DNA of 45,917 bases. Source: Escherichia phage 2725-N35. The stretch is taken from the sequence record MN840485.1. One strand, given 5' to 3'. The notes beneath the pieces were generated by a model. That model was not told the origin of the DNA. It ran no database searches and worked only from the letters and a program-made list of their open reading frames with translations. Position numbers and translations under genes: made by a program. The first letter of the stretch is position 1. Every line of letters starts with the position of its first letter. Shown piece by piece: positions 1 through 45,162 of this stretch.

Positions 1-983
1 CATCTTTAGCTAGGGCTAACTTCGAAAGAGTAATCTCCATCCATTACATCAATGAGGATGTAACCATCTTCTGTGATGACCAACTCATATTCGTAACCAG
101 TTTTGCGTGATTCGTAGAGAATTTTCCAGTGTAGATAGTAGCCATTTTATTTCTCTCTTTGTGTTTCGTTTCGATGGAGTAACTATACCCCATCTTTTAA
201 AATCGCCTTTAGCAATTCGTGCTATTTTGAAATCATTTCTTTGAATGCTGCAAGAAAACCCTCACGTCCGTAGGCGACTGCCGAGAAACCGCCTGATTCC
301 ATTACACTTTTCAGGAATGCCTTCTGTTCTTCGCTGACTGGACTTGCTTGAGTTTTGCCAGCCCTCTTTAGCTCTATAGCTCCGAAAGGATACTTACCTC
401 GAAGTGATTCAGGAATAAGAAACATACAGTCTGATACGCCTTTTAGAAGCCCCTTAGCCTGGTCTTTTCTTGCTTGACCAATGGTTTTCTTTCCCTCATT
501 CACGCAATGGAAAAATACCATATCTGGGTAGTTATACTTAACCCAATCAGAGCAAAAGATTTGTTCGTCATCCTCTTTAGGGCATGACTTAACCGGACCA
601 GGGTAAAACTCAATGTAATCTTCTTTATCTGTAATCTTCATAATAATTCTCCAAAATTCTTAAACGCTATCACGTCCTTTCCTTTTGCATTCCGGCGATG
701 CGTAACCTGAACTGGCGCACGGAACTTATCTACGTTAGTCATAATCATTCTGGCATTTTTAAGCCTGCCAATTCGCGCCGCTTCCGTGCGATTCTCAATA
801 TGAGCTAAGCAAAAGTTCTTCCAGAGCACACTGCAAACTCGATGGTCTGATTCTGGATTAAAGAACTCCCAAGCGTTAAATCTCTCTCCGTTATGAGCCA
901 TTATATTGTACTTAACTACAATGCCTGTCTGATTCTTACTTAACCCAACTTGAAAATCATAAACACGAAGGTAATCACCACGA
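1..983. repeat. Terminal direct repeat, copy A (matches ~44935..45917); contains the 3' end of the helicase gene, the VRR-NUC gene, one promoter element and the 5' part of a small gene
   Basis: Window start and end are collinear and near-identical; ORF-track proteins at 222..641 and 45156..45575 are identical. Two 2-bp indels between copies: 'gtagaga' at ~115 vs 'gtaga' in copy B, and 'ctttag' at ~5 vs 'ctttgtag' in copy B. Confidence 0.9.
222..641 (-). CDS. VRR-NUC-like (PD-(D/E)XK superfamily) nuclease
   Basis: 139 aa with 'FHCVNEG...', 'GAIELKRAGK' and an E/K-containing core typical of VRR-NUC; start overlaps the helicase stop (ATGA). Confidence 0.6.
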   Translation of the reverse strand: MKITDKEDYIEFYPGPVKSCPKEDDEQIFCSDWVKYNYPDMVFFHCVNEGKKTIGQARKDQAKGLLKGVSDCMFLIPESLRGKYPFGAIELKRAGKTQASPVSEEQKAFLKSVMESGGFSAVAYGREGFLAAFKEMISK

Positions 984-2733: not shown

Positions 2734-3213
2734 ATGAATACAGTCGACAAGCGAACAATTAACGGCAATAACGGAACCATCCGCACCGAAGACAAAAAGC
2801 AACGTAAACGACCTTCAGGCTACTATGTTTTAAAAGATGAAGTAAGAGCCGGGCTACGCGCGCGGCTAGAGATAGTTCTTGATTTCTTCGGCACAAAGGC
2901 GAATATCGCAAAGCAGTTAAAGGTAACACCACAGGCTGTAGAAGAATGGTTTAAGCGCGGTATGATTTCTGCGCGTGGGGCTCAACTTTCTCACAACTAC
3001 TATAAGCGAAATGGAGAAGGTTTTCGCGCTACATTCTGCCGACCAGACCTGCAATTCGACGGCAACGGGAGACCGCTGACACTTCGGTGCAAAAAGCGCC
3101 ATATGCTGCGAGTCGTCACTGAGGCTGAATTAGCCACTAAGCCAGAGTGTCGTTCATGGCGCAAGATAAAATTAGAGAACCAAAAGAAGAAAGAGCAAAA
3201 CAGCACGATTTGA
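2734..3213 (+). CDS. DNA-binding protein with Cro/YdaS-like helix-turn-helix; putative transcriptional regulator
   Basis: 159 aa; 'TKANIAKQLKVTPQAVEEWFKRGMIS' HTH; SD GAGGT upstream of ATG. Confidence 0.55.
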   Translation: MNTVDKRTINGNNGTIRTEDKKQRKRPSGYYVLKDEVRAGLRARLEIVLDFFGTKANIAKQLKVTPQAVEEWFKRGMISARGAQLSHNYYKRNGEGFRATFCRPDLQFDGNGRPLTLRCKKRHMLRVVTEAELATKPECRSWRKIKLENQKKKEQNSTI

Positions 3214-4221: not shown

Positions 4222-4258
4222 TCAAAGATGCTACAATCCACTTTAGCAATTCGTGCTA
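4222..4258 (+). promoter_or_regulatory. Extended -10 promoter (TGcTACAAT) followed by an inverted copy of the P-box upstream motif; candidate operator
   Basis: gaTGCTACAATccacTTTAGCAATTCGTGCTATTTT immediately upstream of the tail fibre gene. Confidence 0.45.
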
Positions 4259-4282
4259 TTTTACAAATGGAGACTCTACACA

Positions 4283-6817
4283 ATGGCAATTTATGACTCA
4301 GGAACAGCTTCTCTAGCAGCAAGTGGTGAGGTGACTGGCGTCGGGACAACATGGAAAGCACCTCTTACACTGATTCGTGTAGGTGCAACCATTGTATTTA
4401 AAACTGAACCAGTACAGATTTACACCATCTCAGAAATTATCAGCGATACGCAGATTAATGTTTACAACCCTAACTCCGAAACTGTTCCTGCTGGAACTGG
4501 TTACGCTATCCTTGCGCATGATGGAATTACCGTTCAGGGATTGGCTCAGGATGTAGCAGAGACTTTGCGTTACTACCAGTCTAAGGAGACATCCATCGAA
4601 GGATTGCTGCAATTTATTGGTCAAGACACTTTCGACTGGCCTCGCTTCGAGCAACTTGCAAATCAATCAATCACTGGAGCTGCGGAGGCGCTTGCTAGTC
4701 AGGTTACTGCCGCAGAGAGTGCTTCTACTGCTGTTAGCGCAAGAGACGCAACAACATCAGCGAGAGATGCTACTATTGAGGCAATTAATAGTGCTGGTGA
4801 TGCCAGCACGCTGGTTACTCTTGCTAATATTGGTATTGGTACATCATCACAGCCGCAGATAAGTGCGATTGACTGGCAGACGTATGATTTCAAGTCAATG
4901 TCTAGCTTCACAACGACGCTGCAGTCGATGAGTAACTTGCCTGCGGGGTTGAATTTTGCAACCGGAAACCCATACCTTTTTGTTACAGTTCTTTCATCAA
5001 GGTCTGTCGCAGGGACTGTATCGGCAAAGGTTCAAGTTTCAACAAGGGCCGATAACGACAACAACACAAGAGTTTACGACGTTTACGTAAATGGGAACGT
5101 CGGGTCTAGGGTTTTTTCTGTAAGAGAGAATCTTAGCCTTGTTTCAAACTCAACAACACCCGACGGAGGTGTAACTGCGGATAGAATCAGAAGCAGACTT
5201 GATATTTACTCAAAGAGTGAGACTGATGGGGTTGTAGATGCTCTTAAAAACTTCAAGCTTAATAATGTTTCATCAGTAGTTAGAAGTGTGGAATCAAAAC
5301 TTGGTGACTTTGTTAACGTCATGGATTTTGGTGCTACAAACAATGGTACTTTAGTTCCTCTTTCATCTAAATTTTCGACAATTGAGGATGCGCGGTTTGT
5401 TTATCCATTTGCATCAAACCTTAACGAGTCACTTGACGCAGTTGCGCTTCAGGCGGCGGTTAATACTGGCAAAACGGTATACATACCAAAAGGATTTATG
5501 TTTATTAACAGGACTGTAAGGATTGGCAACAGCACGAGAATTATTGGTGAGGGGACAAGCCAAATAAACAGGGCGCAAACATTTATATCAGTTGATGGAA
5601 ACATAAACCTGTTTGCCTTGGTTCAGGGTGGTGCTGAAAACATAAGAATGTATCAAGTATTTATTGAAGGACTTTACATTTTTTATAACCCAGGAACTAC
5701 ACCGACCGTAGCATCAGGGAATGATCAAAAGATAGCATTCAACTTTGTTTCTAATGTTGGTTCTGCCACAGGGCTAGAAAATTCATGTATCAAAGATTGC
5801 ACAGTTCATGGAGCGTGGGGTTGCTACCTTGATACTACTGGAACGTATCAAACAAAGCTGCAAAACGTATGGGCAAGGAACTGTAGAAACGGATTCATTA
5901 AAGCCACAGGAACTACAATTCTTATGGAAACATGCTACGCATCTGGCTGCGTTTCTCCTTTTGAATTTGGTTCAGTAATGAGTGTGACAATGATTAACTG
6001 CGCAATGGATGCCAGTAATATATCATCAACATCAGGTTCTTATGGTGGGGCTGGAATTAACTTCATCAACAGCCATAGTGTAAACATACTAGGGATGGAC
6101 GTCGAAGGTAACATTATTGACACCAACGGTTCTCAGGATTGCTGCCTTATTAGGTTTAATAACTCAAATGGCAGGATTTCTGGACTAACGTCATGGAAAA
6201 ACGAGGTTAGAACAACTGGAGGTGGTTCTGGTGGTGTGGTTTCATATATCAAGGCCTCTGGAACGTCTCACGTCATTATTGACTCGTCTGAGGATGATAT
6301 TAATGATAGCGGATTGGTTTACACTGGAACTGGTGGATATCCAGTAACAATTTACGCGGCAGATTCGGCGTCAAGGATTGATATTCTCAGCGGTAGGTTC
6401 CAGTCAGCTAAAGGGGGCTCCCCTTCGATATCGGTTGTTAGTCAGGGCAATGTGAACTGGTTTACTGAGCCTATGGGTGGTTCTATTGCTGGTGGTTATA
6501 AGCAGACATACTCATCAGAAGGATTGAGGACTAATGGTGTTTATACGGATAAAGGTTCAAAGGTGGTACAGGCAAGCGTTCCAACTGGGCTATTTGAATT
6601 ACCAAACTCACCAGGCTTGTACAAGGTTTGTACCTGGGTGGCTAATGCTGGAACAAACTATAGCGTCATAGCTGACGTTCTATTTGATGGAGCCACATCA
6701 TCAATTACAGTCACTAAGACGGCAGCATTTACAACACTGGATGTTAGTTCAAGGACTGTCAGTATAACTGCACGGGGTGCAGCCACTTACAAATGGACTT
6801 ACACTAAAATAGGTTAA
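4283..6817 (+). CDS. Tail fibre/tailspike protein with predicted right-handed beta-helix (possible depolymerase) domain
   Basis: 845 aa; N-terminus 'MAIYDSGTASLAASGEVTGVGTTWKAPLTLIRVGATIVFK' as in T1/T5-type fibre anchors; central region rich in N/G/T/S beta-helix-like repeats. Confidence 0.65.
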   Translation: MAIYDSGTASLAASGEVTGVGTTWKAPLTLIRVGATIVFKTEPVQIYTISEIISDTQINVYNPNSETVPAGTGYAILAHDGITVQGLAQDVAETLRYYQSKETSIEGLLQFIGQDTFDWPRFEQLANQSITGAAEALASQVTAAESASTAVSARDATTSARDATIEAINSAGDASTLVTLANIGIGTSSQPQISAIDWQTYDFKSMSSFTTTLQSMSNLPAGLNFATGNPYLFVTVLSSRSVAGTVSAKVQVSTRADNDNNTRVYDVYVNGNVGSRVFSVRENLSLVSNSTTPDGGVTADRIRSRLDIYSKSETDGVVDALKNFKLNNVSSVVRSVESKLGDFVNVMDFGATNNGTLVPLSSKFSTIEDARFVYPFASNLNESLDAVALQAAVNTGKTVYIPKGFMFINRTVRIGNSTRIIGEGTSQINRAQTFISVDGNINLFALVQGGAENIRMYQVFIEGLYIFYNPGTTPTVASGNDQKIAFNFVSNVGSATGLENSCIKDCTVHGAWGCYLDTTGTYQTKLQNVWARNCRNGFIKATGTTILMETCYASGCVSPFEFGSVMSVTMINCAMDASNISSTSGSYGGAGINFINSHSVNILGMDVEGNIIDTNGSQDCCLIRFNNSNGRISGLTSWKNEVRTTGGGSGGVVSYIKASGTSHVIIDSSEDDINDSGLVYTGTGGYPVTIYAADSASRIDILSGRFQSAKGGSPSISVVSQGNVNWFTEPMGGSIAGGYKQTYSSEGLRTNGVYTDKGSKVVQASVPTGLFELPNSPGLYKVCTWVANAGTNYSVIADVLFDGATSSITVTKTAAFTTLDVSSRTVSITARGAATYKWTYTKIG

Positions 6818-6818
6818 T

Positions 6819-6849
6819 AAAAAAAGGCCCCGAAAGGGGCCTTATCTTT
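6819..6849. terminator. Bidirectional rho-independent terminator between convergent tail fibre and SSB genes
   Basis: A7-GGCCCC-gaaa-GGGGCC-TTATCTTT. Confidence 0.8.
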
Positions 6850-6853
6850 GATA

Positions 6854-7282
6854 TCAGAACGGGATATCGTCGTTGAATTGCTGTTGTTGCTGTGGCTGTG
6901 GCTGATATTGCTGTTGTGGCTGCCGCTGTGGCTGTTGCTTAGGCTTCTGCTGGCTGCCAGAATCCACGCGCTGACTAAACTCAAGTCGTGGGTTGTTCAT
7001 GTTAATCGTTACGTAAGTCTTACCATCTTTATCTCGAACATCAACAGCCAGACTTTCGGCGCTAACGCTAACAACCTTACCCTCTTGAAATGCTTCATTG
7101 TACCAATCTAGCATTGACTCTTTCGCGAAGAAGACTGCGCGATAGTTACTATACTGAGTCTGACCATCTTTATCTTTGTATCGCTCACTCAAATCAACCG
7201 CAAACATTTTCCAGGTACCATTAGCATTCTGACCTTCTTTAGTGAATGGAGCGCGGCGAATCTGACCAGTAATTACGTGCAT
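6854..7282 (-). CDS. ssb: Single-stranded DNA-binding protein
   Basis: OB-fold-like N-terminus, Q/P-rich linker, C-terminal acidic tail ending DDIPF. Confidence 0.9.
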   Translation of the reverse strand: MHVITGQIRRAPFTKEGQNANGTWKMFAVDLSERYKDKDGQTQYSNYRAVFFAKESMLDWYNEAFQEGKVVSVSAESLAVDVRDKDGKTYVTINMNNPRLEFSQRVDSGSQQKPKQQPQRQPQQQYQPQPQQQQQFNDDIPF

Positions 7283-7323
7283 GTTTTTATCTCTCTATTG
7301 TTGGGGCCTAAGCCCCTCTTAAA

Positions 7324-7974
7324 CTAGAATGTGTCGATTTGTTGTGATTCTACTTCATTCTTTTCTTTATCACTACTTTTTTCTGCAACTTTCTTAGGCG
7401 TTGCTGGGTTAAAGCCAGTCATTGCATTAGCTTCGATTTCTGCTTTTCGCTCGATAATGTGAGGTTCAAAAACCTTCCATCCTGCCGCATCAAGTGATTG
7501 TTTGGCCTCTTTCCATACATTACGAAGCTCATCAAGAGTGTTGCATTTCTCGAGTTCTCGCTTGAAATCCTTAACACCCTTAGCGGCGAGATTGCCATCA
7601 TCATCTGCCTGGCTGAGACCTAAAGCTGCCGTTATTCCGTAACGTCGAGCATATGTTAATGCTGAGCCGTAACCTTGAGCATCATTCTTGCTGATTGGTA
7701 CAATCATTAAGAAGCTAACCCACTCTCCAGATTCTGCGTGAAATAGCTTTGTCTCAACCTTTAGTAGTCCATTTGCTTCGCTATCAATTACGCTCTGAAA
7801 CATCACAAGACCACATTCTTCAAGGCCAGGCTCTACAGCGGCAAGAACATCATCAAGAGTACTATATCTGTTCTTGAGGTGAGAGTTCTGCTTCGACTTT
7901 TCAGCCTTCGCAAATAGCGATTTAGCGGTGTGCAGCGCGTTTAAAATTGATTTGCATGATTCTGAAATTTGCAT
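7324..7974 (-). CDS. erf: Erf-family single-strand annealing recombinase
   Basis: 'GSALTYARRYGITAALGL...DDDGN' matches the P22 Erf signature 'SSYARKY..NGLFGIDD'. Confidence 0.8.
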   Translation of the reverse strand: MQISESCKSILNALHTAKSLFAKAEKSKQNSHLKNRYSTLDDVLAAVEPGLEECGLVMFQSVIDSEANGLLKVETKLFHAESGEWVSFLMIVPISKNDAQGYGSALTYARRYGITAALGLSQADDDGNLAAKGVKDFKRELEKCNTLDELRNVWKEAKQSLDAAGWKVFEPHIIERKAEIEANAMTGFNPATPKKVAEKSSDKEKNEVESQQIDTF

Positions 7975-8003
7975 CTTTAACCTCGTTCGTTGTTGATGGG
8001 ATA

Positions 8004-8050
8004 ATCATACCCCGCATTTTAATTTTGTCTTTAGCAATTCGTGCTGTTTA
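8004..8050 (-). promoter_or_regulatory. P-box promoter upstream of the erf-ssb operon
   Basis: AACAGCACGAATTGCTAAAG, 22 nt, TATGAT; 29-nt leader to erf ATG. Confidence 0.6.
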
Positions 8051-8224
8051 AATTTCTTTATACTTCCTCATATCCCACTCAGTAACATCTAAATCAATCT
8101 CTGTTGCGCCCATTGCATAACCTGGCCACACATCATTCTCTTTGCACTTCTTGTAAGTGGCAAGCGCCTCTAAGTACATCCTGCGACCAACCCTCAGTTG
8201 CTCTTCTGTAATATTATAAAGCAT
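8048..8224 (-). CDS. Small hypothetical protein (58 aa, below ORF-track cutoff)
   Basis: ORF MLYNITEEQLRVGRR...; stop lies inside the P-box motif; weak RBS. Confidence 0.3.
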   Translation of the reverse strand: MLYNITEEQLRVGRRMYLEALATYKKCKENDVWPGYAMGATEIDLDVTEWDMRKYKEI

Positions 8225-8262
8225 TGGTAAGTAAGGCTCTTCTTTCTCGATTGCAAGCAGCC

Positions 8263-9012
8263 TTACTTTTGTTTCTCTTTTTCATTAAAAGCTCTAACAA
8301 AAACATCGTTCTGAAGCGCCATTTTTGCAAGATAACCGTGCTTAAATGCAAGCCTTCCAAACTCCTGAGGTGATGCGCTGGCTGTCGTTTTCAGATCGGT
8401 AATACACACCACGCCGTCAACAACGTCAACATGGTCAATTCGAATCTTAACGCCGACGCCGAGAATCTCACCGAAGATTGATAACTCTTTCTGCGCCGTC
8501 TCACTATTCACGATTGCATTGTATGCCGGAATATTGCAAAGAACCTCACGCATAGCCACAACTTTGTCATAGTCTGCTGCGCTAACTAGCTCCTTACCCT
8601 CCACAAGCGCTTGAGCGCTTTCCAGCTGATCAATTAGCCACTTAATGGGCCAGTCCTCGCCAGAACGATACATCATCTCTACAAGCTCGCTATAGCCCTT
8701 CCCTGATGTTCCAGCCACACCGACTTTTTTAAGTGCTGCTGCTAATCCTGCCTGGCTTGTAATTAAGCCTTCAATCGCGTCAAGGTCTGCTGCTCGCAAA
8801 TACTCCTTGTCGAATACATCTTGTTCGAGAATCATGCAGTGAGATAAGGTACCAAACTTAAGCGCCTTGCTATCGCTATTGCGTTGCTTGAACTTCCACT
8901 TAGCTGGTGATCCTTGGATAATCTCGACAAGTGAGCTGCCGGAGATATGATCTTGCTCTGAGTGGTAATCCTCGTTGCTTAGCTCCTCTCGTGTGTAAAC
9001 CCTGAAAGTCAT
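8263..9012 (-). CDS. PD-(D/E)XK exonuclease (YqaJ/lambda-Exo-like), putative partner of Erf
   Basis: 249 aa; 'IRIDHVDVVDGVVCITDLKTT' D...D/E-x-K motif; lies upstream of erf. Confidence 0.6.
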   Translation of the reverse strand: MTFRVYTREELSNEDYHSEQDHISGSSLVEIIQGSPAKWKFKQRNSDSKALKFGTLSHCMILEQDVFDKEYLRAADLDAIEGLITSQAGLAAALKKVGVAGTSGKGYSELVEMMYRSGEDWPIKWLIDQLESAQALVEGKELVSAADYDKVVAMREVLCNIPAYNAIVNSETAQKELSIFGEILGVGVKIRIDHVDVVDGVVCITDLKTTASASPQEFGRLAFKHGYLAKMALQNDVFVRAFNEKEKQK

Positions 9013-9206
9013 TTTATTTTCACCTCAACATTTCTCGTTGAAACAGTAACAGGAACTTCACTACAACCCATAAGTGCTTTCGCTAAATCAGAACATGTAG
9101 TTGTTATATTTATCTCCCTTCCTGTGCTAAATTTTACCCTTAATCTTACCTCAGGATCTTTCTCGTCGTTGTATGGTGACTTATTTATGTCTATAAAAGC
9201 CTTCAT
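9009..9206 (-). CDS. Hypothetical small protein
   Basis: 65 aa ORF in operon context, 4-nt overlap with downstream gene. Confidence 0.45.
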   Translation of the reverse strand: MKAFIDINKSPYNDEKDPEVRLRVKFSTGREINITTTCSDLAKALMGCSEVPVTVSTRNVEVKIK

Positions 9207-9209
9207 ATT

Positions 9210-9404
9210 TTATTCCTTAACCTTAACCACTTTAACAGACTTCAAATCTTCTTCAGTGAAGTAACCAGTCAGCACATCTCGGGCTTCTTCTTTAGTCTCG
9301 AATCTGTCAGCCTCTTTCTTATCTGTTGTGTACCCAGCAGGTCCACCAAAGTAGCAGTCGCCGAACAGTGCGTTGTTTTTCTCTTTGATAATGTAGTAGG
9401 TCAT
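9210..9404 (-). CDS. Hypothetical small protein
   Basis: 64 aa ORF, first gene after divergent region A. Confidence 0.45.
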   Translation of the reverse strand: MTYYIIKEKNNALFGDCYFGGPAGYTTDKKEADRFETKEEARDVLTGYFTEEDLKSVKVVKVKE

Positions 9405-9424
9405 TTCTCTATCTCTATGGTTGT

Positions 9425-9480
9425 TTGCTTTCGATTGGTTAACTATATATTCGGCACCGTAGCCAGTCCAATTGGTTTTG
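9425..9480 (-). promoter_or_regulatory. Degenerate P-box promoter for the 9404-leftward operon
   Basis: Minus reading: ...GCAAAACCAATTGG, 22 nt, TATATAGTTAACCAATCGAAAGC leader. Confidence 0.4.
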
Positions 9481-9711
9481 CCAATCGTTGATTCAATTTT
9501 ACGCGTTAATCATTGTAATTCCGTGTAGGTATTGCCGCTAGTTACGTTTCTTGGCATCTCAGCCCAGCTATAGCTCAATGTAACTAGTGTGTATGTCGTG
9601 TATATCATTTATTGCTGAGGGTGCATTGGTATAGCAGCCGCGCAATACTGTATAAATCCACATGATATTAAAATTATAACCGGAACACTCTATAGAAGTG
9701 GTTACATGATA

Positions 9712-9775
9712 TACACAGTAATATATATAATAATAATAATAAGAGTAAAAGGTTGTTATATATAGATATTTTAAT
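9712..9775. repeat. AT-rich element with (TAA)n microsatellite, copy 1 (copy 2 at ~36306..36372)
   Basis: acacagtaatatatataataataataataagagtaaaaggttgttatatatagatatt; ~90% identical to copy 2. Confidence 0.8.
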
Positions 9776-9867
9776 GTAACTAATGCGTAAATTAGCGTAA
9801 CAGAGCGTATATCATTTTCCGCGGATGAGATTGTATACATCGAGTTACATCGGTTACGTGTATGCAA

Positions 9868-9935
9868 TAGCACGAATAGCTAAAGACATTCCGCACTGAC
9901 GGTTGTATTATTACTACATCGAAACGAAACAACTT
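9868..9935 (+). promoter_or_regulatory. P-box promoter for the lipoprotein/receptor-binding protein operon
   Basis: AATAGCACGAATAGCTAAAG, 23 nt, TATTAT, TACTACATCGAAACGAAAC leader. Confidence 0.55.
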
Positions 9936-9950
9936 AATAAGGAATACAAA

Positions 9951-10196
9951 ATGACTAACTTCATCAAATCAGCAATCATAGCGGCGGCAGTAATCATGAC
10001 GGTAGGTTGTTCTTCTGGTCCTCGACCTGATGGGTGGTGTGCAACACAAGCAAACGGCGTGTGCGTAGCTAAGTGGAAAGGCGGTGTAGTTGTTCCGGCT
10101 GGTGATGTTGATATTCGCTACGCTGGCATTGAAAGCAAATCTGGCGGCGGTTACGGCGGTTCTGTTGCAGATCACGGCAGTAAGGAGTGGAAATAA
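9951..10196 (+). CDS. Small lipoprotein; candidate superinfection-exclusion factor
   Basis: Signal peptide with lipobox (...IMTVGC SSG); SD AAGGA; track ORF trimmed to this ATG. Confidence 0.6.
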
Positions 10197-11159: not shown

Positions 11160-11189
11160 AGAAAAGCCCCAATTAAGGGGCTTTATTTA
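11160..11189. terminator. Bidirectional terminator between the putative receptor-binding protein gene and the J-like gene
   Basis: GCCCC-aattaa-GGGGC flanked by T-runs on both strands. Confidence 0.75.
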
Positions 11190-14656: not shown

Positions 14657-15229
14657 TTAAGCAATGTCTTCACTATATGAACCCGCACTAAACACAGAAC
14701 CGCCAACCGTTCGATATCCATACGGAAGACAAACTGGATAACCAGCAGCTACAGTGTTCACAGCCGAGCCAAATGCATATGACGCCCTGTTACTTGTCTG
14801 GTTGCTCTGGTCTTTCAATCCAGTAGCTTGAGGTGATAGCAACTGAGCTACGCCGCCAGCAGCAAGAGAGATACCTGCACCAACAAGGTAGTATTGCTGG
14901 AATACAACACCAACAACGATTAGTGCGGCACCAAGTATTGTCTGAAATAACCCTCCAGACTTACGACCTTGTGGAATTGGCAAGATGCGTATCTCCTGAA
15001 CGGCACTAAAATCAGCAATTCGATGCTCGTTCACATTTTTACCATCCACAAAAATAGCATATCTTGTGTTTTGCCCTACATGGCTATTCATGAACTCTTT
15101 GAAGGATGGAATCTGAGAACAAAGCGCTCGCATTGCTTCTGGCACGCTACTCACTGCCATTTGGTGAACCTTGCCAAACCTCCTACCTAGAGACAGGCCT
15201 AACTTAATATCAATCAGTTTCTGGGTCAT
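14657..15229 (-). CDS. Tail assembly protein, lambda gpI-like
   Basis: 190 aa, position between K-like and J-like genes, hydrophobic G/A-rich segment. Confidence 0.65.
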   Translation of the reverse strand: MTQKLIDIKLGLSLGRRFGKVHQMAVSSVPEAMRALCSQIPSFKEFMNSHVGQNTRYAIFVDGKNVNEHRIADFSAVQEIRILPIPQGRKSGGLFQTILGAALIVVGVVFQQYYLVGAGISLAAGGVAQLLSPQATGLKDQSNQTSNRASYAFGSAVNTVAAGYPVCLPYGYRTVGGSVFSAGSYSEDIA

Positions 15230-15968
15230 AACTTACATCCTCTGGTAAATCCTTATGGCGAACAATTCGCACTGTTCTTTCGCGCCAGTAATCGGAGTAG
15301 ATATCAATGGAACTCATTTTACCATAAAGATGGTGAATGAATCTGTTGTTGCCAATGTAGATTCCTGCGTGGTTTGTCACCTCACTTTGCACCTGCATCA
15401 TAATCATTGAGCCAATAGGAATATCCGAATTTTTTACCAGCTCAAAGCCTTCCTTGATCCAGTTGTCGTCATAGATATTTTCGCTGTACTTCTTCTCCCA
15501 CCATGGGTAATTAACGCGATAGTCATTCAGTTTGACTCCGTATTTCTTGTGGAATGCCATTACCAGCCCCCAGCAATCGAAGCTACCCAACCCCCATGGT
15601 CGACCAATCAGTGGCATGGTTGATGGCTCAAGAATCCGCATGTCTCCCTCCGGGATACTTACGATAACGTAAGGAATCTCGCATTCATTACAGCTGCAAA
15701 TATCCGCAGGACTGGGCCTTGTTGTCGCTCCGTCACCAGTGTGAGAGTGGACTACGTAAACAATAGATTCATTGTGAGCCAATTCAAAGAGAACATCTGC
15801 ATACTCATTTGAGTCAAGCAGGAATTCATTCTCCGGGTCTTTGCTTGCGTTTGTTATCCTGTGATACTTCTGCGCCCTACCCTTCTGCGTGACAACTCCA
15901 CAGCACTCATGCGGGTAAACTTCCTTTGCGTGCTGGAAGATTTCCAGTTTAACTTTTGGTGTTAACAT
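15210..15968 (-). CDS. Tail tip protein, lambda gpK-like (MPN/JAB + NlpC/P60 domains)
   Basis: 'VVHSHTGDG' JAMM-like motif, Cys/His peptidase-like C-terminal half; conserved position. Confidence 0.8.
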   Translation of the reverse strand: MLTPKVKLEIFQHAKEVYPHECCGVVTQKGRAQKYHRITNASKDPENEFLLDSNEYADVLFELAHNESIVYVVHSHTGDGATTRPSPADICSCNECEIPYVIVSIPEGDMRILEPSTMPLIGRPWGLGSFDCWGLVMAFHKKYGVKLNDYRVNYPWWEKKYSENIYDDNWIKEGFELVKNSDIPIGSMIMMQVQSEVTNHAGIYIGNNRFIHHLYGKMSSIDIYSDYWRERTVRIVRHKDLPEDVSYDPETD

Positions 15969-15977
15969 TGTTCCCCC

Positions 15978-16733
15978 TTAGCTCTGATTCGCTTTAGCTT
16001 GAAGGCTTGCTGCTGCGCATCCACCAAATGAAAGCTGGTTATTCTCTCCAAATCTAATCTTACAGCTATTAACTGTTCCGGCGCAGAAATCTAGAGACGG
16101 ATCACTGACCGGGTTGTCGTCTTTGTCAAAATAACGATTGCCAGCGTAGTCGCATCCATTACCGCTGCGATACCAACCCCTAGAAGCCCAATAGCAAACA
16201 GACTGAACAAGTCTTGCGGGGATATAAATACCATCCATATCCATCGGGCTGCTTAGCTCAAACGATGCGGTCTTGTAGTCAACCTGCTTCGGTCGCTCAA
16301 TAAAGTAAACGAATCTGCGATAGTCACCGTCAGCAATGCTTCCATCCTCATTGATGTTATCGCGCGTAGTAATCCAGATTGTAACCTTAGCTTTAACAAG
16401 TCCGTTGTATGTTCGGATTAACGCACTAATACGCTGGTCAACGTTTGATACCGTTAATGTAACCTTATTGGCCTTTCCGTCAGAAGTCATATTTATGCCA
16501 GAGATTCCAAATGGTCTAGGCCCGTACTCTTCACCACGAAATGTGATGGTTTTCTCTGGTAGTGGCTCGCCATTCATTTGAGCCAGCATGATTTCTTCTG
16601 GAGTGTATGAGATGTTCTCATTGTGGAACGAATAAACGAGACCCCCGAAGGACGTGCCGTCAACCTGGATTAGTGTCACAATCTCACCAGGGAAAAGGCT
16701 TTGCAACTGATTTTCAAACTTTGGACTTAACAT
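15978..16733 (-). CDS. Minor tail protein, lambda gpL-like
   Basis: Position and size; C-terminal Cys cluster; start set at ATG with GGAG SD (track uses upstream TTG at 16748). Confidence 0.65.
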   Translation of the reverse strand: MLSPKFENQLQSLFPGEIVTLIQVDGTSFGGLVYSFHNENISYTPEEIMLAQMNGEPLPEKTITFRGEEYGPRPFGISGINMTSDGKANKVTLTVSNVDQRISALIRTYNGLVKAKVTIWITTRDNINEDGSIADGDYRRFVYFIERPKQVDYKTASFELSSPMDMDGIYIPARLVQSVCYWASRGWYRSGNGCDYAGNRYFDKDDNPVSDPSLDFCAGTVNSCKIRFGENNQLSFGGCAAASLQAKANQS

Positions 16734-16750
16734 ATATTTCTCCAACAAAA

Positions 16751-16767
16751 AGCCCCATATAGGGGCT
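16751..16767 (-). terminator. Intra-operon hairpin with T-run between the M-like and L-like genes
   Basis: GCCCC-tatat-GGGGC then TTTTTGTT. Confidence 0.45.
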
Positions 16768-16771
16768 TAGT

Positions 16772-17122
16772 TTAACGCATTGAGCTAAAAACTTCTACGA
16801 ATTGCATGTTTACAGTCTGAACTTCGCTACTAATTGGTGTAACTGAAATGCTATCCTGCTGAATAACAAACATAGAAGTATCACCTTGCGGTGTTTTCCA
16901 GAAGAATGGTGTGATGATGTGATTGAAGCAGAAATCCATAACCTCACGCCAGTCCTTGTTTGTATAGGTCATCTGGTAGCTGCGCTTATTACTGCGGTAG
17001 CCCCCTGTTCCTCTTTGCTCAAAACCATTGCCAAAGCTAACAATACGAACATTGTTTGTATTGGAAAATGCAGCTCCACCATTCTGGATTTGTGTACACC
17101 ATGTAAAATTATCTATTGCCAT
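16772..17122 (-). CDS. Minor tail protein, lambda gpM-like
   Basis: 116 aa, immediately downstream of the tape measure gene. Confidence 0.6.
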   Translation of the reverse strand: MAIDNFTWCTQIQNGGAAFSNTNNVRIVSFGNGFEQRGTGGYRSNKRSYQMTYTNKDWREVMDFCFNHIITPFFWKTPQGDTSMFVIQQDSISVTPISSEVQTVNMQFVEVFSSMR

Positions 17123-17133
17123 AAAAATCCTTA

Positions 17134-17147
17134 GGGGCCGAAGCCCC
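17134..17147 (-). terminator. Intra-operon hairpin between the tape measure and M-like genes
   Basis: GGGGC-ttcg-GCCCC followed by taaggattttt and ATG. Confidence 0.4.
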
Positions 17148-17152
17148 GTTAA

Positions 17153-20134
17153 TTAGTTAAATCCGCGCAGGTACTGATAAGCTCTGCCACCCTGCTGGAA
17201 AGACTGAGAAATCTCTTCAGCTACAATTGCCTTAACGCCATTTTGCAGCGCCTTGGCCTGCTCTGGGTCACTTCCAATTCCACTATTAACGTTAACCGTA
17301 ATTCCACTAACATTAACATCTGTGCCTCCAGAAACCAAGCCACCATTTGCATAGCCAGAGGGACCACCAACGACACCACCGTTTGCGTAACCTTTCATTA
17401 GAGCGTAAAGGTTCTTAACACCGATTCGACTAGTTGCTTCTTTTGTGAATACAAACTCACCACGGTGTACGGTTCCTGCTGGTTGGTATTTCCCTCCATT
17501 ACCAGTATAACCACCGTTAGCGAATCCACCACCAATCGCAGATGCGATAGAGCCAATCGCGCCACCAGTACCACCAAAGCTACTTAAACTAGACTCGATA
17601 GCCTTAACAATAAGAAGCTGAGCCGCAATCTTAGCAATCTGTTTAAGGATGTTAACAGTGAACTCTCTGAAGTTAGTTTCACCAGTTGTTACAAGGTCAG
17701 TAATCTGGTCAGTAATGCCTTCAAATACTGTGGTGGTTAAACTTCCAGCAATTGAGAATGCATCCGTCGCGCTCTCAGCCCAATTAGCAAAGGATTGGTT
17801 CACACCAGCAAGCCAGTTTTCACGTAGCGCATCTTCCTGAGCATAAAAGTTACGTCTTGCCTCGAGAAGCTGCTGAAAATCCACGTCATCAATTGCGCCA
17901 CCAGCATTAACCTGATTGGACTGAAGAGCCTGAATCTCTTTGGCTCTCTGTTGTTCACGAGAAGATAGACCAGCCCCCAAATCAATGTTTTTTGCTTCGT
18001 TGTTAATCTGAAGAATCTTCTTGCGGTTATCTTCAGCTAACTTATTGGCTCGCTCCTGCAAAACAATCTGATCACCCAATTCAGCCTTCTGCCTGGCCAA
18101 CTCAAGAACTTTATCCTTTTCAATTAGAAGTCTTGCTTGCTCTTTGGTAATTGAGCCATCAAGTTGCCTCTGCTCAAGAATCCTGAATTTAGCCTCCTCC
18201 TGAAGATACTGCTTGCGCTCATTGCTTATTACTGCGCCAATATCCCTATTTTCCTGAAGTACCTTGAGTTGGGCCTGAAGCGCTAGAACGCCAGATTCAT
18301 AACCAATTGTTAAATCTATTTGCTCCTTAACCCTACTATTTTCTTCTTTCCTGTTCTTCTTGATCGCATCAAGCTCATCCTGAAGCGCCTTCTTCCTTTT
18401 TGCAAATTCCTCATCAGTACCTGACTGCTCATTGGTATTCTGATTTTCTCTGCGAGTAACGTAACCAAGCTCTCCCTCTCTGATTCTGGCATCTCGCTCC
18501 TTGATAGACTTCTCTAGCTCAAGGTTTTGCTTCTTGGCGGCATCGATAATCTTCTGCTGCCCCTTGATAACATCATCACCAACGCCATCAAGACCAGGAA
18601 TGTTCTGCAATGCCTGAGTTGCGCTAATTACGAATTCACCAATCAGCGCATCACCCTGATTAATGAAGACCCTGATCTGCTCAATTGTTCCGGCGATTAC
18701 GTCAACAAACAGGTTTAGAGCCCCAACCGTTCTACGGCTAATTGCATCCCAGATATCAGAGATGTACTTTCTGAAATCATTCCAGGCTAGCTCAAGCGGA
18801 GTTAACTGCTCTGCTATGTCGTTAAGGTTGGCTTCCTGCGACTTGCTGAAAATGTCAATTGCGGCGGTAACAGCCTCAACCTCTCCCTTTGTCTTCCTAA
18901 GGTTTTCAATTGTCGTCAACTGCCCCTGAGTGAGGAAGTTAAAGCGCTTATCCAAATCAACCAATCCCTGTATTGGGTCGCTAGCAATCTGGTTGTAGTA
19001 ACCAGTAATTTCCTTTGCATCCTTACCTGTCAACTGCGCCCATCTTGCGGTTGATTTAGTAATCTTGTCAATCTGCGTCAGCGTAAGGTTTCCTTGCTCA
19101 ACAAGGCTCGTTGCGATGCTAGTCACAAGTCCCCTAGTGGCTCCTGTTGCATCAGAAACAGAACTAACCAACTCTCTAACCTGCGAGATTGATGCTATTG
19201 TAGAGTTGTTGGAGAACGCAATTGCGGAGTTTAACGCCCTGAATTCACTTTCAGCCTGAGCCGCACCAACACCAAGAGCTACAAGCGCCCCACCCAAAAC
19301 ACCAACAGCAACATTGAATGGATTTAAGGCTGCAAGCGCGAATCTAAATGTGTTGCCAATACCGCCAAAGCTATCCTTAATCTGCCCACCCTGCTGGATT
19401 GCAATAAGCCAAACAGGCATGCCGCTAGCTAATGACGTGGTAATATCAGTTATCTGTGCCGGAAGCATCCTGATAGCATTCCTGTATTGACCGGCACTTA
19501 ATCCTGATCTCAGAAACGCCTTACTTTGGTTTGCTAATTGAACATTAGCCCTCTCTGAAGCCTCTGCGATTCTGTCAATAATAGGTGCTGCCTGAGAGCT
19601 TACGCCAAGCTGAGAAGCCTGTAACTTTAAGTACTCCTCACGCGTCAATGTTGCCGCTTGAGCCTGTCGCTCAAGTGAAGCAATGAATCTATCAGCTTCA
19701 GCCTTTGCCTTTGCCTTATCCTTTGCGGCTTGAGCTGCCGCCCTACCCTCTTCAGTTAGTGCCGCACGTGAACGGGCGAGCTTTGCATTCTGCGTTTCAA
19801 GAGCCTCGCCTAAGCGGAAAAACTCCTCATCAGGAACTACGCCAGCAGCAAATGCCTTATCAAGTCCTACAGCCGCCTCTTGCAGCTTACGGAACTTTGC
19901 CGCAGTTGGATCAATAGCAGTTTGCAATTTAGCTAAAGATGCTTGTTGCTCAGCAAGTGCGTGAGCGGTATCTCTAGCCTGGTTTTTCGCAACCTGCTCA
20001 GCATTGACGAACTCACTAATACCGGAAGCGGCTTGCTGGTTGGCCTGTCTGAACTTCTGTAGGGATTGCGTACCCCTGTCTACCTGAGATACGTCTACGG
20101 CTAGTGTGATTCCGGCTAATTCATTTGTTGCCAT
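17153..20134 (-). CDS. Tail tape measure protein
   Basis: 993 aa, long coiled-coil-rich (A/Q/E/K/L) sequence, located between the chaperones and the tip genes. Confidence 0.85.
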   Translation of the reverse strand: MATNELAGITLAVDVSQVDRGTQSLQKFRQANQQAASGISEFVNAEQVAKNQARDTAHALAEQQASLAKLQTAIDPTAAKFRKLQEAAVGLDKAFAAGVVPDEEFFRLGEALETQNAKLARSRAALTEEGRAAAQAAKDKAKAKAEADRFIASLERQAQAATLTREEYLKLQASQLGVSSQAAPIIDRIAEASERANVQLANQSKAFLRSGLSAGQYRNAIRMLPAQITDITTSLASGMPVWLIAIQQGGQIKDSFGGIGNTFRFALAALNPFNVAVGVLGGALVALGVGAAQAESEFRALNSAIAFSNNSTIASISQVRELVSSVSDATGATRGLVTSIATSLVEQGNLTLTQIDKITKSTARWAQLTGKDAKEITGYYNQIASDPIQGLVDLDKRFNFLTQGQLTTIENLRKTKGEVEAVTAAIDIFSKSQEANLNDIAEQLTPLELAWNDFRKYISDIWDAISRRTVGALNLFVDVIAGTIEQIRVFINQGDALIGEFVISATQALQNIPGLDGVGDDVIKGQQKIIDAAKKQNLELEKSIKERDARIREGELGYVTRRENQNTNEQSGTDEEFAKRKKALQDELDAIKKNRKEENSRVKEQIDLTIGYESGVLALQAQLKVLQENRDIGAVISNERKQYLQEEAKFRILEQRQLDGSITKEQARLLIEKDKVLELARQKAELGDQIVLQERANKLAEDNRKKILQINNEAKNIDLGAGLSSREQQRAKEIQALQSNQVNAGGAIDDVDFQQLLEARRNFYAQEDALRENWLAGVNQSFANWAESATDAFSIAGSLTTTVFEGITDQITDLVTTGETNFREFTVNILKQIAKIAAQLLIVKAIESSLSSFGGTGGAIGSIASAIGGGFANGGYTGNGGKYQPAGTVHRGEFVFTKEATSRIGVKNLYALMKGYANGGVVGGPSGYANGGLVSGGTDVNVSGITVNVNSGIGSDPEQAKALQNGVKAIVAEEISQSFQQGGRAYQYLRGFN

Positions 20135-23751: not shown

Positions 23752-23812
23752 TTTTGTCTCCTTTGTTTATCTGATTGAGTGATTATAACTCAACAAATCC
23801 ATTTGGTACAGA

Positions 23813-23843
23813 CGTAAAAAAGCCCTACGAAGAGGGCCATTTA
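23813..23843 (-). terminator. Terminator after the major capsid gene
   Basis: GCCCTC-ttcg-(T)AGGGC then T6. Confidence 0.7.
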
Positions 23844-28534: not shown

Positions 28535-28551
28535 TGCATTTCTCCAATAAA

Positions 28552-28575
28552 AAAGCCCCATGTGGGGGCTAGTTT
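28552..28575 (-). terminator. Hairpin with T-run upstream of portal
   Basis: GCCCCC-acat-GGGGC then T5. Confidence 0.5.
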
Positions 28576-31699: not shown

Positions 31700-31730
31700 T
31701 TTGTTGAGGTCAGATTATACCATATTGCAG
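31700..31730 (-). promoter_or_regulatory. sigma70-like extended -10 promoter (TGgTATAAT) for the packaging/late operon
   Basis: Minus reading: tgcaataTGGTATAATctgacctcaacAAAGGAGGattaaATG. Confidence 0.55.
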
Positions 31731-31732
31731 AC

Positions 31733-31760
31733 GAAAAAAAGCCCTCAAGCGAGGGCTAAA
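31733..31760 (-). terminator. Rho-independent terminator ending the tRNA/small-gene transcript
   Basis: AGCCCTCGCTTGAGGGCT then T7 on the minus strand. Confidence 0.75.
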
Positions 31761-31999: not shown

Positions 32000-32077
32000 T
32001 GGCGCTCCGCACTGGATTCGAACCAGTAACCTACGACTTAGAAGGTCGTTGCTTCTGTCCTGTTGAGCTAGCAGAGC
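32000..32077 (-). tRNA. tRNA-Arg(UCU): tRNA-Arg (anticodon UCU) with encoded CCA
   Basis: Minus-strand GCTCTGC...ACGAC-CTTCTAA-GTCGT...ACTGG-TTCGAAT-CCAGT-GCGGAGC-G-CCA: 7-bp acceptor, 5-bp anticodon stem with UCU, canonical T-arm. D-arm is irregular. Confidence 0.75.
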
Positions 32078-35478: not shown

Positions 35479-36027
35479 CTACTTAGTCTCCTTAATCATT
35501 TCCTGATAAGCATTAATCATTGTAACAGCGCCCTTAAGTTCTTCACCTTCCAAGCCAGCAACACTTGGTGACAGCTTGAGCAGTCTAGACTTGAACTTTT
35601 CAATGATAGCCGCCTCTTTCTCCGCTTCCTGCTTTTTCTTTTCGCGACTCCCAGTCCAGTGCGCGCCGTTCTCAATGTATATGACCAGGTATTTATCAGC
35701 GCCATCACCGTCGAAGCTACCGGGCCTTGTTTGCTCTCCGTCATCATCAATCCAGATGAACTTATATCTCGCTCGCTTATTAGCATCGCGAAGCTCTGTC
35801 ATTCTCGACACTGTGTTATAGATGTATGAGTTCTTTAGTTCCGGCATCGCCCTATCTGCCAGGTTGAGGATCTCACTAGTCTCTTCGTCATACACCATTT
35901 CAGGGTATTCCTTGCCTCGAACCAGTTTGAATATCTGGCTAACCGGAACTTTAAACTCACCACTCTCGGACACCATCGCGTTGCGCACCATCTCACGGAT
36001 AACTTCACCTAGTGTTACTTTCTGCAT
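35479..36027 (-). CDS. Hypothetical early protein
   Basis: 182 aa; first gene leftward of divergent region B. Confidence 0.5.
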   Translation of the reverse strand: MQKVTLGEVIREMVRNAMVSESGEFKVPVSQIFKLVRGKEYPEMVYDEETSEILNLADRAMPELKNSYIYNTVSRMTELRDANKRARYKFIWIDDDGEQTRPGSFDGDGADKYLVIYIENGAHWTGSREKKKQEAEKEAAIIEKFKSRLLKLSPSVAGLEGEELKGAVTMINAYQEMIKETK

Positions 36028-36039
36028 GTTGATACCTCG

Positions 36040-36110
36040 TTTGTTTTACTTCGTTTCAGTGACTGCTATATTGCCATCTATTTACGTGTCGGTCAATGTA
36101 TATTTTCGTC
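36040..36110 (-). promoter_or_regulatory. Promoter for the 36027-leftward operon (TTGACC -35-like, TATAGC -10-like)
   Basis: Minus reading: ATACATTGACCgacacgtaaatagatggcaaTATAGCagtcactGAAACGAAG; resembles P-box downstream half. Confidence 0.4.
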
Positions 36111-36305
36111 TATTTTATCATGGATACGCTTTTTGCCTCCAGAGGCCCCTCCATTGCTGGTTGTAAATGTGCCGTATCCGATGTGTACAGATTTTTGAAG
36201 CCATTCCCTATATATGTGCCTTTTATTCCTACAATGCCATCCATTTCTGACAGGTGTCAGAATATCTGCGCGGAACATATCAATAATCTCACCAATTACC
36301 GGTAT

Positions 36306-36372
36306 ACACAGTATACATATATATAATAATAATAATAATAATAAAGTAAAAGGTTGATATATATAGATATTA
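36306..36372. repeat. AT-rich element with (TAA)n microsatellite, copy 2
   Basis: acacagtatacatatatataataataataataataaagtaaaaggttgatatatatagatatt; matches copy 1 at ~9712..9775. Confidence 0.8.
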
Positions 36373-36479
36373 TATTGTATATCGTGTGTATATATCGCGT
36401 AAAAACGTAGGTTAGTGGTCACTAACTTTTGTGACGACACTGAGTATACGGAGGATACGCGTATATCCGTGAGGCTCCC

Positions 36480-36660
36480 ATAGATTGGTAAAAATCAACT
36501 TGTATGGTAGTCAATCCATCTTTCATTCACTCACTCACCACTTCATTTCACTTTTCGCAACAATCAAAAACATCATTGCATCTGAAGCAATATTGCTATA
36601 TGCGCAATAATCATGTGAATCATTGCAATATCTGCAACAATCCATAAATCTGACGAATGG
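36480..36660. repeat. Cluster of short direct/inverted repeats (iteron-like) in divergent region B
   Basis: Repeated GCAACAATC, CATTGCA(A)T, palindrome GCAATATTGC, and tcattcac/tcatttcac direct repeats. Confidence 0.5.
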
Positions 36661-36715
36661 CACTTTTTGCTAAAGACATGCGGGGATGGCGAGGATATAG
36701 TTAACTCATCAAAAC
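36660..36715 (+). promoter_or_regulatory. P-box promoter for the rightward small-gene operon
   Basis: AATGGCACTTTTTGCTAAAG, 23 nt, TATAGTTAACTCATCAAAACGAGG. Confidence 0.6.
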
Positions 36716-36727
36716 GAGGGGATAGAA

Positions 36728-45079: not shown

Positions 45080-45116
45080 TTTATTTCTCTCTTTGTGTTT
45101 CGTTTCGATGGAGTAA

Positions 45117-45162
45117 CTATACCCCATCTTTTAAAATCGCCTTTAGCAATTCGTGCTATTTT
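45117..45162 (-). promoter_or_regulatory. P-box promoter (archetype; duplicated at ~182..228)
   Basis: AAAATAGCACGAATTGCTAAAGG, 22 nt, TATAGTTACTCCATCGAAACGAAAC; VRR-NUC stop TAG lies inside the box. Confidence 0.6.

Follow-up and report, generated by a model that had tools for sequence, protein, structure and literature searches.

In the replication origin (ori) of the Staphylococcus aureus pathogenicity islands (SaPI), repeats stand in opposite orientation around an AT-rich centre and serve as binding sites for the winged helix of Rep helicases, which load themselves; this ori is single, lies directly downstream of rep and has iterons of 5-6 nt (PMC9371898). A comparable layout occurs twice in Escherichia phage 2725-N35, an Rtp-like siphovirus (Drexlerviridae, Braunvirinae) whose complete, wrapped genome makes up the stretch analyzed here (record MN840485.1, 45,917 nt; "the window", to which coordinates refer). 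The two modules, A and B, lie in two intergenic regions, gap A (9405-9950) and gap B (36028-36727), and each consists of an AT-rich core with short repeats on both sides. As in SaPI, the centre is rich in A+T (the cores have 87-90% and form the least stable pair of 60-mers in the genome), the iterons on the two sides of the core are oppositely oriented in A as well as in B, and the phage encodes an AAA+ helicase with a C-terminal winged helix according to a structure model. In contrast to SaPI, two modules exist here, both away from the helicase gene, and the iterons have 7-9 nt. By analogy, the modules may work like a SaPI-type origin, but they are not claimed as members of the SaPI family because adjacency to the initiator gene fails. 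Most conservatively, each would be filed as an iteron-flanked AT-rich origin, a class in which the two copies, the distance from the initiator gene, the core with its trinucleotide run, and the position of one copy beside the packaging site (pac) would be unusual. Judged from sequence, the modules are the best current candidates for the origins of this phage family, and we give the reading of the two blocks as a pair of replication-origin modules about an even chance.

Other described systems share parts of this design. In satellite phage P4, ori and crr share short iterons read by alpha, one polypeptide that is primase, helicase, and initiator; the two regions are ~4.5 kb apart, and crr consists of two direct 120-bp repeats. 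Phage 2725-N35 likewise has two separated cis regions with the same short iterons, and the annotation of the T1 primase records similarity to the P4-family alpha primase. However, primase, helicase, and ori-binding functions would reside in separate genes here, and distances of 18 and 27 kb separate the two sites on the circular map. In SPP1, a virulent pac-type siphovirus of Bacillus, oriL and oriR are homologous, far apart, and composed of initiator repeats adjoining an AT-rich stretch; oriL is located within the initiator gene 38, and G38P is not a helicase. Two homologous, distant copies with repeats beside an AT-rich stretch are common to both phages, but no sequence or protein homology between them is known. 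The origins ori(uvsY) and ori(34) of T4 and the primary origin of T7 combine a promoter with an adjoining AT-rich unwinding element, have no iterons, and use an R-loop or transcript as primer. Modules A and B are also bracketed by promoters, but no convincing promoter reads into either core. The lambda ori resembles the modules in that iterons adjoin an AT-rich region; it is present in a single copy and consists of four 19-bp iterons within the gene of O, a non-helicase initiator (PMC11447400). A repeat search of the window found no lambda-type array of four ~19-bp iterons in any replication gene, and the same has been reported for phage TLS. Finally, the basal unwinding system (BUS) of bacteria is built from a DnaA-box and DnaA-trios (PMC8287927). 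In Rtp-like phages the DnaA-box-like 9-mer ATATACACA is similarly followed within 2-10 nt by (TAA)n, which amounts to 3'-AAT-5' repeats with a central A. If the orientation rule is set aside, the formal BUS pattern (DnaA-box with <=2 mismatches, spacer <=16 bp, >=3 NAN trios) is present with ATATACACA at 9709 and GTATACACA at 36302, each followed by (TAA)n. In contrast to BUS, the iterons of other lineages are not DnaA-box-like, and T1 lacks a (TAA)n run of at least three units; T1 replication is not known to depend on host dnaA.

For T1-like phages, the re-annotation of TLS in 2024 reported no iterons anywhere in the TLS genome and named no origin (PMC11447400), and no origin was found in the SU57 paper of 2020. 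The absence of a prior origin holds for these two papers; the original genome papers of T1 (Virology 2004) and Rtp (J Bacteriol 2006) may mention the second AT block.

Gap A is bordered by a leftward open reading frame (ORF) of 64 aa (9210-9404) and a rightward gene of the Pfam family Phage_lipoprotein (9951-10196). The leftward operon comprises two small ORFs and the genes for an exonuclease VIII-like protein, Erf, and SSB. Gap B separates a leftward DUF7174 gene from rightward small genes and corresponds to where the deposited records of Rtp, SU57, and T1 end. An earlier interpretation of the window from its letters alone, referred to here as the sequence-only reading, described gap A as non-coding DNA between leftward genes and the lipoprotein gene and regarded the two gaps as the only large divergent ones. 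Both statements are borne out by the gene layout, the sole further divergent gap (2633-2733) measuring just 101 bp. The same reading had pointed to an AT block that is about 90% alike in the two gaps. Indeed, 47 of the 49 bases of 9722-9770 recur in 36318-36371, a single 5-nt indel falling within (TAA)n; the identity is ~87% when gap columns are counted, close to the quoted value, and the homology reaches beyond what had been described, with 80% identity over 100 alignment columns between 9709-9800 and 36302-36402. The local alignment score of A and B is 54, compared to 13.2 +/- 1.8 (maximum 23) in 300 dinucleotide-preserving shuffles. When (TA)n and (TAA)n are masked, the score is 31 and that of the shuffles 12.5 +/- 1.4 (maximum 18), and the non-repetitive flanks kept in the alignment include TATACACAGTA and AGTAAAAGGTTGnTATATATAGATATT. 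Pairwise alignment had been recommended as a check on whether the blocks share anything besides simple repeats, and the similarity is clearly not merely of low complexity.

The two blocks also stand out by duplex stability, which was calculated as nearest-neighbour dG/bp and ranked over 60-bp and 100-bp stretches of the genome; at either length they take the two lowest ranks. The least stable 60-mer is 36317-36376 in module B (dG/bp -0.906), and the core of module A ranks second (-0.940), followed by a third stretch at -1.086; the genome mean is -1.347 with a standard deviation (SD) of 0.078. Eight complete genomes were ranked, namely the window, Rtp, T145P1, vB_EcoS-12397V, Msk, SU57, T1, and the Klebsiella Webervirus cp3. 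In all eight, the blocks are the two least stable 60-mers, located 4.5-5.6 SD above the mean dG/bp, while the next stretch is found at 3.0-3.6 SD. The stability prediction suggested in the sequence-only reading thus singles out the same pair of sites throughout. GC skew follows the direction of transcription in the window and was of no use for locating an origin.

Comparison with relatives further illuminated the distribution of the pair. Gap A with its surroundings shares 95% identity with Veterinaerplatzvirus T145P1 and 89% with phage Rtp, and gap B is 98.8% identical to T145P1. Each Rtp-like genome examined contains two copies and no more, placed in the same two gaps with an unchanged relative orientation, and in all eight complete genomes one block is situated upstream of the exonuclease/Erf/SSB operon and the other adjoins the pac end. 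The similarity of the B copy to A extends over ~130 nt in Rtp, Msk, and IME542, where the right half contains three GCGTA repeats with 10-bp spacing. An alignment of gap A from 13 genomes has its conservation maximum at the block (mean pairwise identity 0.91-0.98 over 9663-9812), ~250-300 nt of the gap being nearly invariant, and the block is again the conservation peak of gap B. Module A is conserved although its right neighbour varies from the lipoprotein gene to a methylase (Msk) and other genes elsewhere. T1, a member of the Tunavirinae, has an AT block in each of the same two gaps (cor/exoVIII and ST1/ST77), and these blocks are mutually 76% alike over 91 nt. In Webervirus cp3 the homology of A and B extends over 134 nt with 84% identity (E 3e-32), and module A is inverted along with the exo-erf-ssb segment, which places it directly downstream of the genes for a helix-turn-helix (HTH) protein and primase. 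Loci around the DUF3987 gene, which encodes the putative helicase, and the exo gene were also retrieved from IMG/VR, and 16 genomes had both gaps captured. In 16 of these 16 genomes, the least stable stretch upstream of exo shows homology to that upstream of the DUF3987 gene, with local scores of 27-107 versus ~13 for shuffles. E. coli genomes and plasmids contain no match to 9560-9870, hence there is no sign that a satellite or plasmid has borrowed the module.

The repeats around the core differ between lineages, yet they are common to both copies within a genome. In phage 2725-N35, nine of the 18 window matches to GTGTATATC/GATATAC (<=1 mismatch) and 10 of the 28 copies of TGTATA (p 2e-9) fall into the two gaps. 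All six copies of TGTAACA in T1 are located in its two gaps (p 2.5e-10), as are 13 of the 18 copies of GGTAAGAT (GTAAGAT) in Webervirus. One lineage carries two copies of TGGGACAAAT and two of TTGTCCCA around the AT core (TGGGACA type), and TLS-like lineages have AACAGAAA/TGTTTC in these positions (GAAACA/TGTTC type). The opposite orientation of the iterons is particularly clear in lineage L139/L196, with two iterons per side. Because these short asymmetric repeats change in concert at two distant loci, one diverging phage protein probably binds both; a single sequence-specific phage protein would then read the two loci. A shared function of the blocks, as postulated before, is thus strongly supported by a pair that is conserved and co-evolving across the phage family. 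The sequence-only reading was right about the pair but overlooked the flanking iterons, their family-wide distribution, and the pac end in gap B.

The core of module A (9718-9778, 87% A+T) contains (TAA)5 at 9728-9742 and a conserved box, AGTAAAAGGTTGTTATATATAGATATT, at 9744-9770. Its left boundary, GTTACATGATATACACAG (9700-9717, minus strand), combines the inverted iteron GTGTATATC (9708-9716, minus strand) with a T1-type GTTACA motif; mean pairwise identity is 0.98 here among the 13 relatives, and the T1 counterpart is GTTGTATATCGTGTAAC. On the right side, the repeats GCGTAAATTA, GCGTAACAGA, and GCGTATATC (9785-9813, plus strand) start at 9785, 9795, and 9805 with 10-bp phasing. The third of them (9805-9813) is an iteron with one mismatch, preceded by GCGTAA at 9785 and 9795, and phage DTL has two perfect copies of GCGTAACTAG in this position. 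A distal tandem pair of iterons, GTGTATGTC GTGTATATC (9589-9606, plus strand), has a 9-bp period, and GTGTATATCGTGTATA in the region of this pair is nearly invariant among the 13 relatives. A conserved tail (9819-9838) contains CCGCGG (9819-9824) and the palindrome GTATAC (9833-9838). Module A thus reads as two direct iterons (9589-9606), one inverted (9708-9716), the AT core, and one direct (9805-9813), or one iteron directly left of the core plus the tandem pair 110 nt away and one to three on the right.

In module B, the inverted iteron GTGTATACC (36301-36309, minus strand) and two palindromes, GTATAC at 36302 and 36311, form part of the left boundary GGTATACACAGTATACAT (36301-36318, minus strand). 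Within the core (36312-36374, ~90% A+T), (TAA)7 (36324-36344) is followed by the box AGTAAAAGGTTGATATATATAGATATT (36345-36371). It is followed by the right-hand repeats (36375-36407, plus strand), which are TTGTATATC (36375-36383), GTGTATATATC (36386-36396), and GCGTAAAAACG. A distal iteron, GCGTATATC (36459-36467, plus strand), lies within the near-palindrome GGATACGCGTATATCC. The order is one inverted iteron (36301-36309), the AT core, and three direct iterons (36375, 36386, 36459), with about one to two left of the core and two to three on the right.

The most likely initiator candidate is the DUF3987 protein (38723-40306, plus strand). Its structure model (predicted local distance difference test, pLDDT, 89.7) resembles an MCM-like AAA+ ATPase and has a C-terminal winged helix, through which the protein may contact the iterons; this domain is the least conserved part of the protein. 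An alternative reader would be the Cro-like HTH protein (2734-3213, plus strand), whose gene lies between the SF2 helicase and primase genes. It matches Pfam P22_Cro below the cut-off, belongs to a PHROG family annotated as 'transcriptional regulator', and has a recognition helix that varies between genera. Weberviruses offered no case that discriminates between helicase and HTH protein as the reader, all of them sharing GGTAAGAT. Searches of PDB sequences with the DUF3987 protein, its profile, and the HTH protein, and of NCBIfam, were uninformative. The DUF7174 gene beside module B was considered as an initiator gene as well and ruled out, unrelated proteins being found in its place in Webervirus and a weakly related one in T1.

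Anatomy, stability ranking, two-copy conservation across the family, and repeat co-evolution at both loci were read directly from the genomes, and the fold of the candidate protein was modelled; from these data we infer that the modules bind a protein, melt in the core, and initiate replication. Each module would offer a ~60-bp AT-rich unwinding core with a (TAA)n run, flanked by iterons (GTGTATATC/GCGTA in this phage) that face opposite ways on the two sides and could serve as protein-binding repeats. A phage initiator, likeliest the DUF3987 helicase, would bind the iterons on both sides. The core as the least stable duplex of the genome would melt next, the helicase would be loaded, and phage primase and host polymerase would begin synthesis. 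Transcription from the divergent flanking promoters may assist opening. One such site would be positioned upstream of the exonuclease/Erf/SSB operon and the other within the chromosome, 120-210 bp from its pac end. Among the three functions offered by the sequence-only reading (unwinding element, curved-DNA or nucleoid-protein site, shared early promoter), the unwinding element gains most support, from the stability ranking and the flanking inverted repeats. A more detailed scenario can be drawn up, which taken as a whole appears rather unlikely: the modules would be the origins of the T1 family (Drexlerviridae), the winged helix of the DUF3987 protein would read the inverted iterons so that the helicase loads itself on both sides, the strand-specific run (TAA)n/(TTA)n in the core would act as a single-strand tracking element in 3-nt steps like DnaA-trios, and the two copies would communicate, for example through initiator-mediated looping as between ori and crr of P4. 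If so, initiation at the pac-proximal chromosome end would be coupled with the recombination-gene locus.

Several observations weigh against an origin function. The DUF3987 gene is 2 kb from module B in this phage (2-4.6 kb overall) and ~27 kb from module A, and in Webervirus the gene that precedes module A is that for primase rather than helicase. Both modules reside between divergent promoters, a position that a purely transcriptional role would fit equally well. The orientation of module A and its distance to the exo operon are fixed (~330-355 nt in most lineages); an origin needs neither, and this constancy hints at a link with expression of the exo operon. Moreover, the definition of the iteron is fuzzy in Rtp-like phages, where GTGTATATC, GCGTAA, GTATAC, and GTAAC motifs coexist, and just one iteron is present directly left of the module A core. 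Two origins in a 45-kb genome would also be unusual, though precedents exist.

The main rival is a shared early-promoter or operator module, an explanation that we consider possible but doubtful. The cores would then be divergent sigma-70 early promoters or UP-like elements and the repeats operators of a regulator such as a Cro-like HTH protein, which would shut off both early units. Such a role would suit the location of both modules, which occupy the only two intergenic regions that are large and divergent. It would also suit the genes left of module B, which are typical early, variable genes for small acidic proteins, and the constant orientation and distance of module A relative to the exo operon, which are kept even in Webervirus with its inverted operon. 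The phage also encodes a Cro-like HTH protein with a recognition helix that differs between genera, but the region upstream of the HTH gene itself contains no iteron. In addition, the repeats are asymmetric 7-9-mers in tandem with 8-11-bp spacing, unlike the palindromes of 14-18 bp that are typical of Cro-type dimers. Hexamer pairs resembling promoters are present in both cores and on both strands. However, all of these matches are weak (9/12), their spacers cross the (TAA)n tract, whose length varies between A and B and among relatives, and no -10 or -35 position is conserved across lineages, which weakens the shared promoter that the sequence-only reading had listed. A genome-wide sigma-70 scan found few strong sites, none of them within the AT cores. 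The flanking operons have nearer promoter-like sites (9470->9442, 9883-9911, 36096->36068, and 36673-36701). In gap A, the leftward one is TGGACT-17-TATAGT (9442-9470, minus strand), a sigma-70-like promoter site for the small-ORF/exonuclease/Erf/SSB operon that is conserved in relatives. The rightward promoter region of the lipoprotein operon (9866-9911, plus strand) consists of a copy of the family-wide 21-nt DR repeat, AATAGCACGAATAGCTAAAG, followed by AAGACA-17-TATTAT. The palindrome CCAATTGG, to which the sequence-only reading had drawn attention, does exist at 9468-9475, where it overlaps the -35 region of the leftward promoter-like site, but it is an unremarkable single copy (chance expectation 0.84) and absent from gap B.

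The two blocks might alternatively be accessory sites of packaging or recombination, bound by the terminase small subunit or by exonuclease/Erf and aiding pac recognition, concatemer processing, or recombination-dependent restart, but this is improbable. Packaging of phage Msk has a single terminus at position 36,862, as determined by PhageTerm (PMC8421802). It maps to window position 36507|36508, and the end of the SU57 record to ~36489. Packaging proceeds leftward in window coordinates, and module B therefore lies 120-210 bp inside the end of the first headful, as inferred from the Msk and SU57 reads; similarly, block B of T1 is located 214-273 bp from position 1 of T1. Earlier authors had tied ATATA repeats near the T1 end to pac (PMC8421802), and module A and the exo-erf-ssb operon stay physically together in every lineage. 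However, the features that most resemble a pac site are confined to gap B and lie outside the shared module. The probable pac region (36487-36650) comprises the box AAATCAACTTGTATGGTAGTC, then a CATTCACTCACTCACCAC tract, and then a field of GCAAYA/TRTTGC repeats. The box (36492-36512), a likely cleavage site next to module B, is unique in the window and conserved, and the read-defined termini of both Msk and SU57 map to it. The repeat field (36550-36650) holds six of the 75 genome copies within 101 bp (p 2e-8), is conserved in relatives, T1, and Webervirus, and is probably the terminase recognition region. Gap A has no counterpart of box or field, thus the pac function belongs to these neighbours and not to the shared block. 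A pac function in gap A would also create a second series of packaging events, which is at odds with the single Msk terminus. Lineage-specific iterons around a melting-prone core are not a known architecture of terminase sites such as the pac sites of P22, SPP1, and Sf6. In some Weberviruses, CCACAAA repeats replace the CACTCAC tract. CCACAAA, one of the top k-mers besides GGTAAGA, was also considered as a different Webervirus iteron and ruled out, its repeats being part of the pac-side region.

A site for host proteins such as H-NS, IHF, Fis, or DnaA, which would organize the injected DNA by binding or bending without any phage-specific reader, has a similarly low probability. The extreme A+T content of the cores would suit such proteins, one exact IHF-core match is found in module B (36347, minus strand), and the DnaA-box-like 9-mers ATATACACA and GTATACACA (one mismatch to TTWTNCACA) stand beside the (TAA)n runs. 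The DnaA and IHF matches were nevertheless judged insufficient as evidence, since the 9-mers deviate by one mismatch and coincide with the iteron and the IHF core is limited to one in module B; module A has none, and direct reading of the block revealed no phased A-tracts. Above all, lineages whose hosts are the same or related differ fully in their repeats (GTGTATATC, TGTAACA, GGTAAGAT, TGGGACA), which favours a phage-encoded, co-evolving reader over a conserved host protein. Farther left in gap A (9640-9662), TACTGTATAAATCCACATGA is invariant, being kept in 13 of 13 relatives, and includes the DnaA-box-like AAATCCACA (7/9). The same element (~9645) was tried as a LexA SOS box, to which it conforms in 15 of 20 positions, but it was rejected as it lacks the invariant CAG of the second half-site.

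It is very improbable that the blocks are coding or act as RNA, either as a duplicated small RNA or through the long ORFs (101 and 115 codons) that span them, even though ~250-300 nt of gap A hardly vary. The ORFs at 9568-9873 and 36093-36440 are present, but they are artefacts, as had been proposed in the sequence-only reading: they are not conserved in length or frame, the stop-to-stop distance ranging from 42 to 199 codons among relatives with 1-nt indels within the block. Single-strand folding of both blocks and both strands gave no unusual structure (z-scores -0.6 to +0.2), and no terminator was predicted in gap A. Scanning the whole window with Rfam at the gathering threshold yielded tRNA only, and scans at E <= 1 returned no family in gap A and sub-threshold noise only in gap B. 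Chance likeness of two low-complexity AT-rich microsatellite tracts, trivially alignable through their (TA)n and (TAA)n runs, is refuted by the masked alignment score beyond the shuffle maximum, the homologous pairs in all 16 IMG/VR genomes, the synteny of the pair across subfamilies, and the co-evolving flanks.

The origin candidates are of broader interest, because T1 belongs to the seven classical T phages and phages of its type are common contaminants in laboratories and fermentations as well as candidates for therapy. The modules provide a concrete, family-wide, and easily testable proposal, with two loci of ~100-130 bp each, lineage-specific repeats, and a named candidate initiator. They could be used for origin mapping, for phage-dependent replicons, for engineering host-range or containment variants, and for studying a bacterial-virus MCM-like helicase at a defined origin. 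In these genomes, the AT/iteron module, the pac box together with the GCAAYA repeats, and the DR promoter repeat of 21 nt are three easily confused cis elements, which are now told apart.

This DR repeat is known from phage TLS (PMC11447400). Its consensus is aaATAGCACnnnTTGnTAAAA in the direction of transcription, ~76 nt upstream of the start codon, and the window contains 21 copies (ATAGCACnnnTTGnTAAA, <=2 mismatches). They lie at 208, 2704, 3200, 4242, 8030, 9867, 21151, 29024, 31169, 32890, 33476, 34002, 34456, 34980, 35354, 36657, 37849, 38649, 42189, 44101, and 45142. Those copies that were checked point in the direction of the downstream gene, and a TATAGT box comes ~22 nt after several of them; TTGCTA is therefore not at -35 distance. 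The repeat looks like an activator or UP-type site of middle or late promoters. The copies in the two gaps (9866-9885 and 36656-36679) are separated from the blocks on their left by 96 nt and 285 nt; the DR repeat is therefore regarded as a separate promoter-associated element.

The gene cargo right of module A (region 9872-9950) has been swapped between close relatives, which carry the lipoprotein operon, a DNA methylase in Msk, or small genes. The recombination junction is located just right of 9860, thus the right edge of module A appears to behave as a recombination boundary or hotspot for accessory genes. In Klebsiella phage cp3 (genome L094), a tail-fibre/SSB/Erf/exo segment (15097-18325, corresponding to window 4253-9404) is inverted when compared with Rtp-like phages and T1. 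Next to module B, on its left side, lies a hypervariable early gene (35479-36027 in the window, minus strand; 539-1114 in genome L086; 48486-49022 in L094). It encodes DUF7174 in the window and a weakly DUF7174-like protein with a faint match to AcrF2, a DNA-mimic anti-CRISPR protein, in T1, and is replaced by a gene of an unrelated PHROG family in Webervirus. This gene may be an anti-defence locus. The window also encodes a tRNA (32003-32077, minus strand; Rfam RF00005, 56 bits), and a tRNA-Arg is annotated in the equivalent early region of SU57. Window positions 7-417 are an exact duplicate of 44943-45351 (~410 bp) except for a 2-nt offset, and the unit genome therefore has ~44.9 kb. Finally, GC-rich hairpins preceded or followed by A/T runs (AAAAAGCCCCnnnnGGGGCT; AAAAAAGCCCTnnnnGAGGGC) are found at 16747-16767, 28550-28570, 6821-6841, 11162-11182, 23809-23837, and 31728-31756. 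These hairpin families probably are intrinsic terminators between transcription modules, as annotated in T1.

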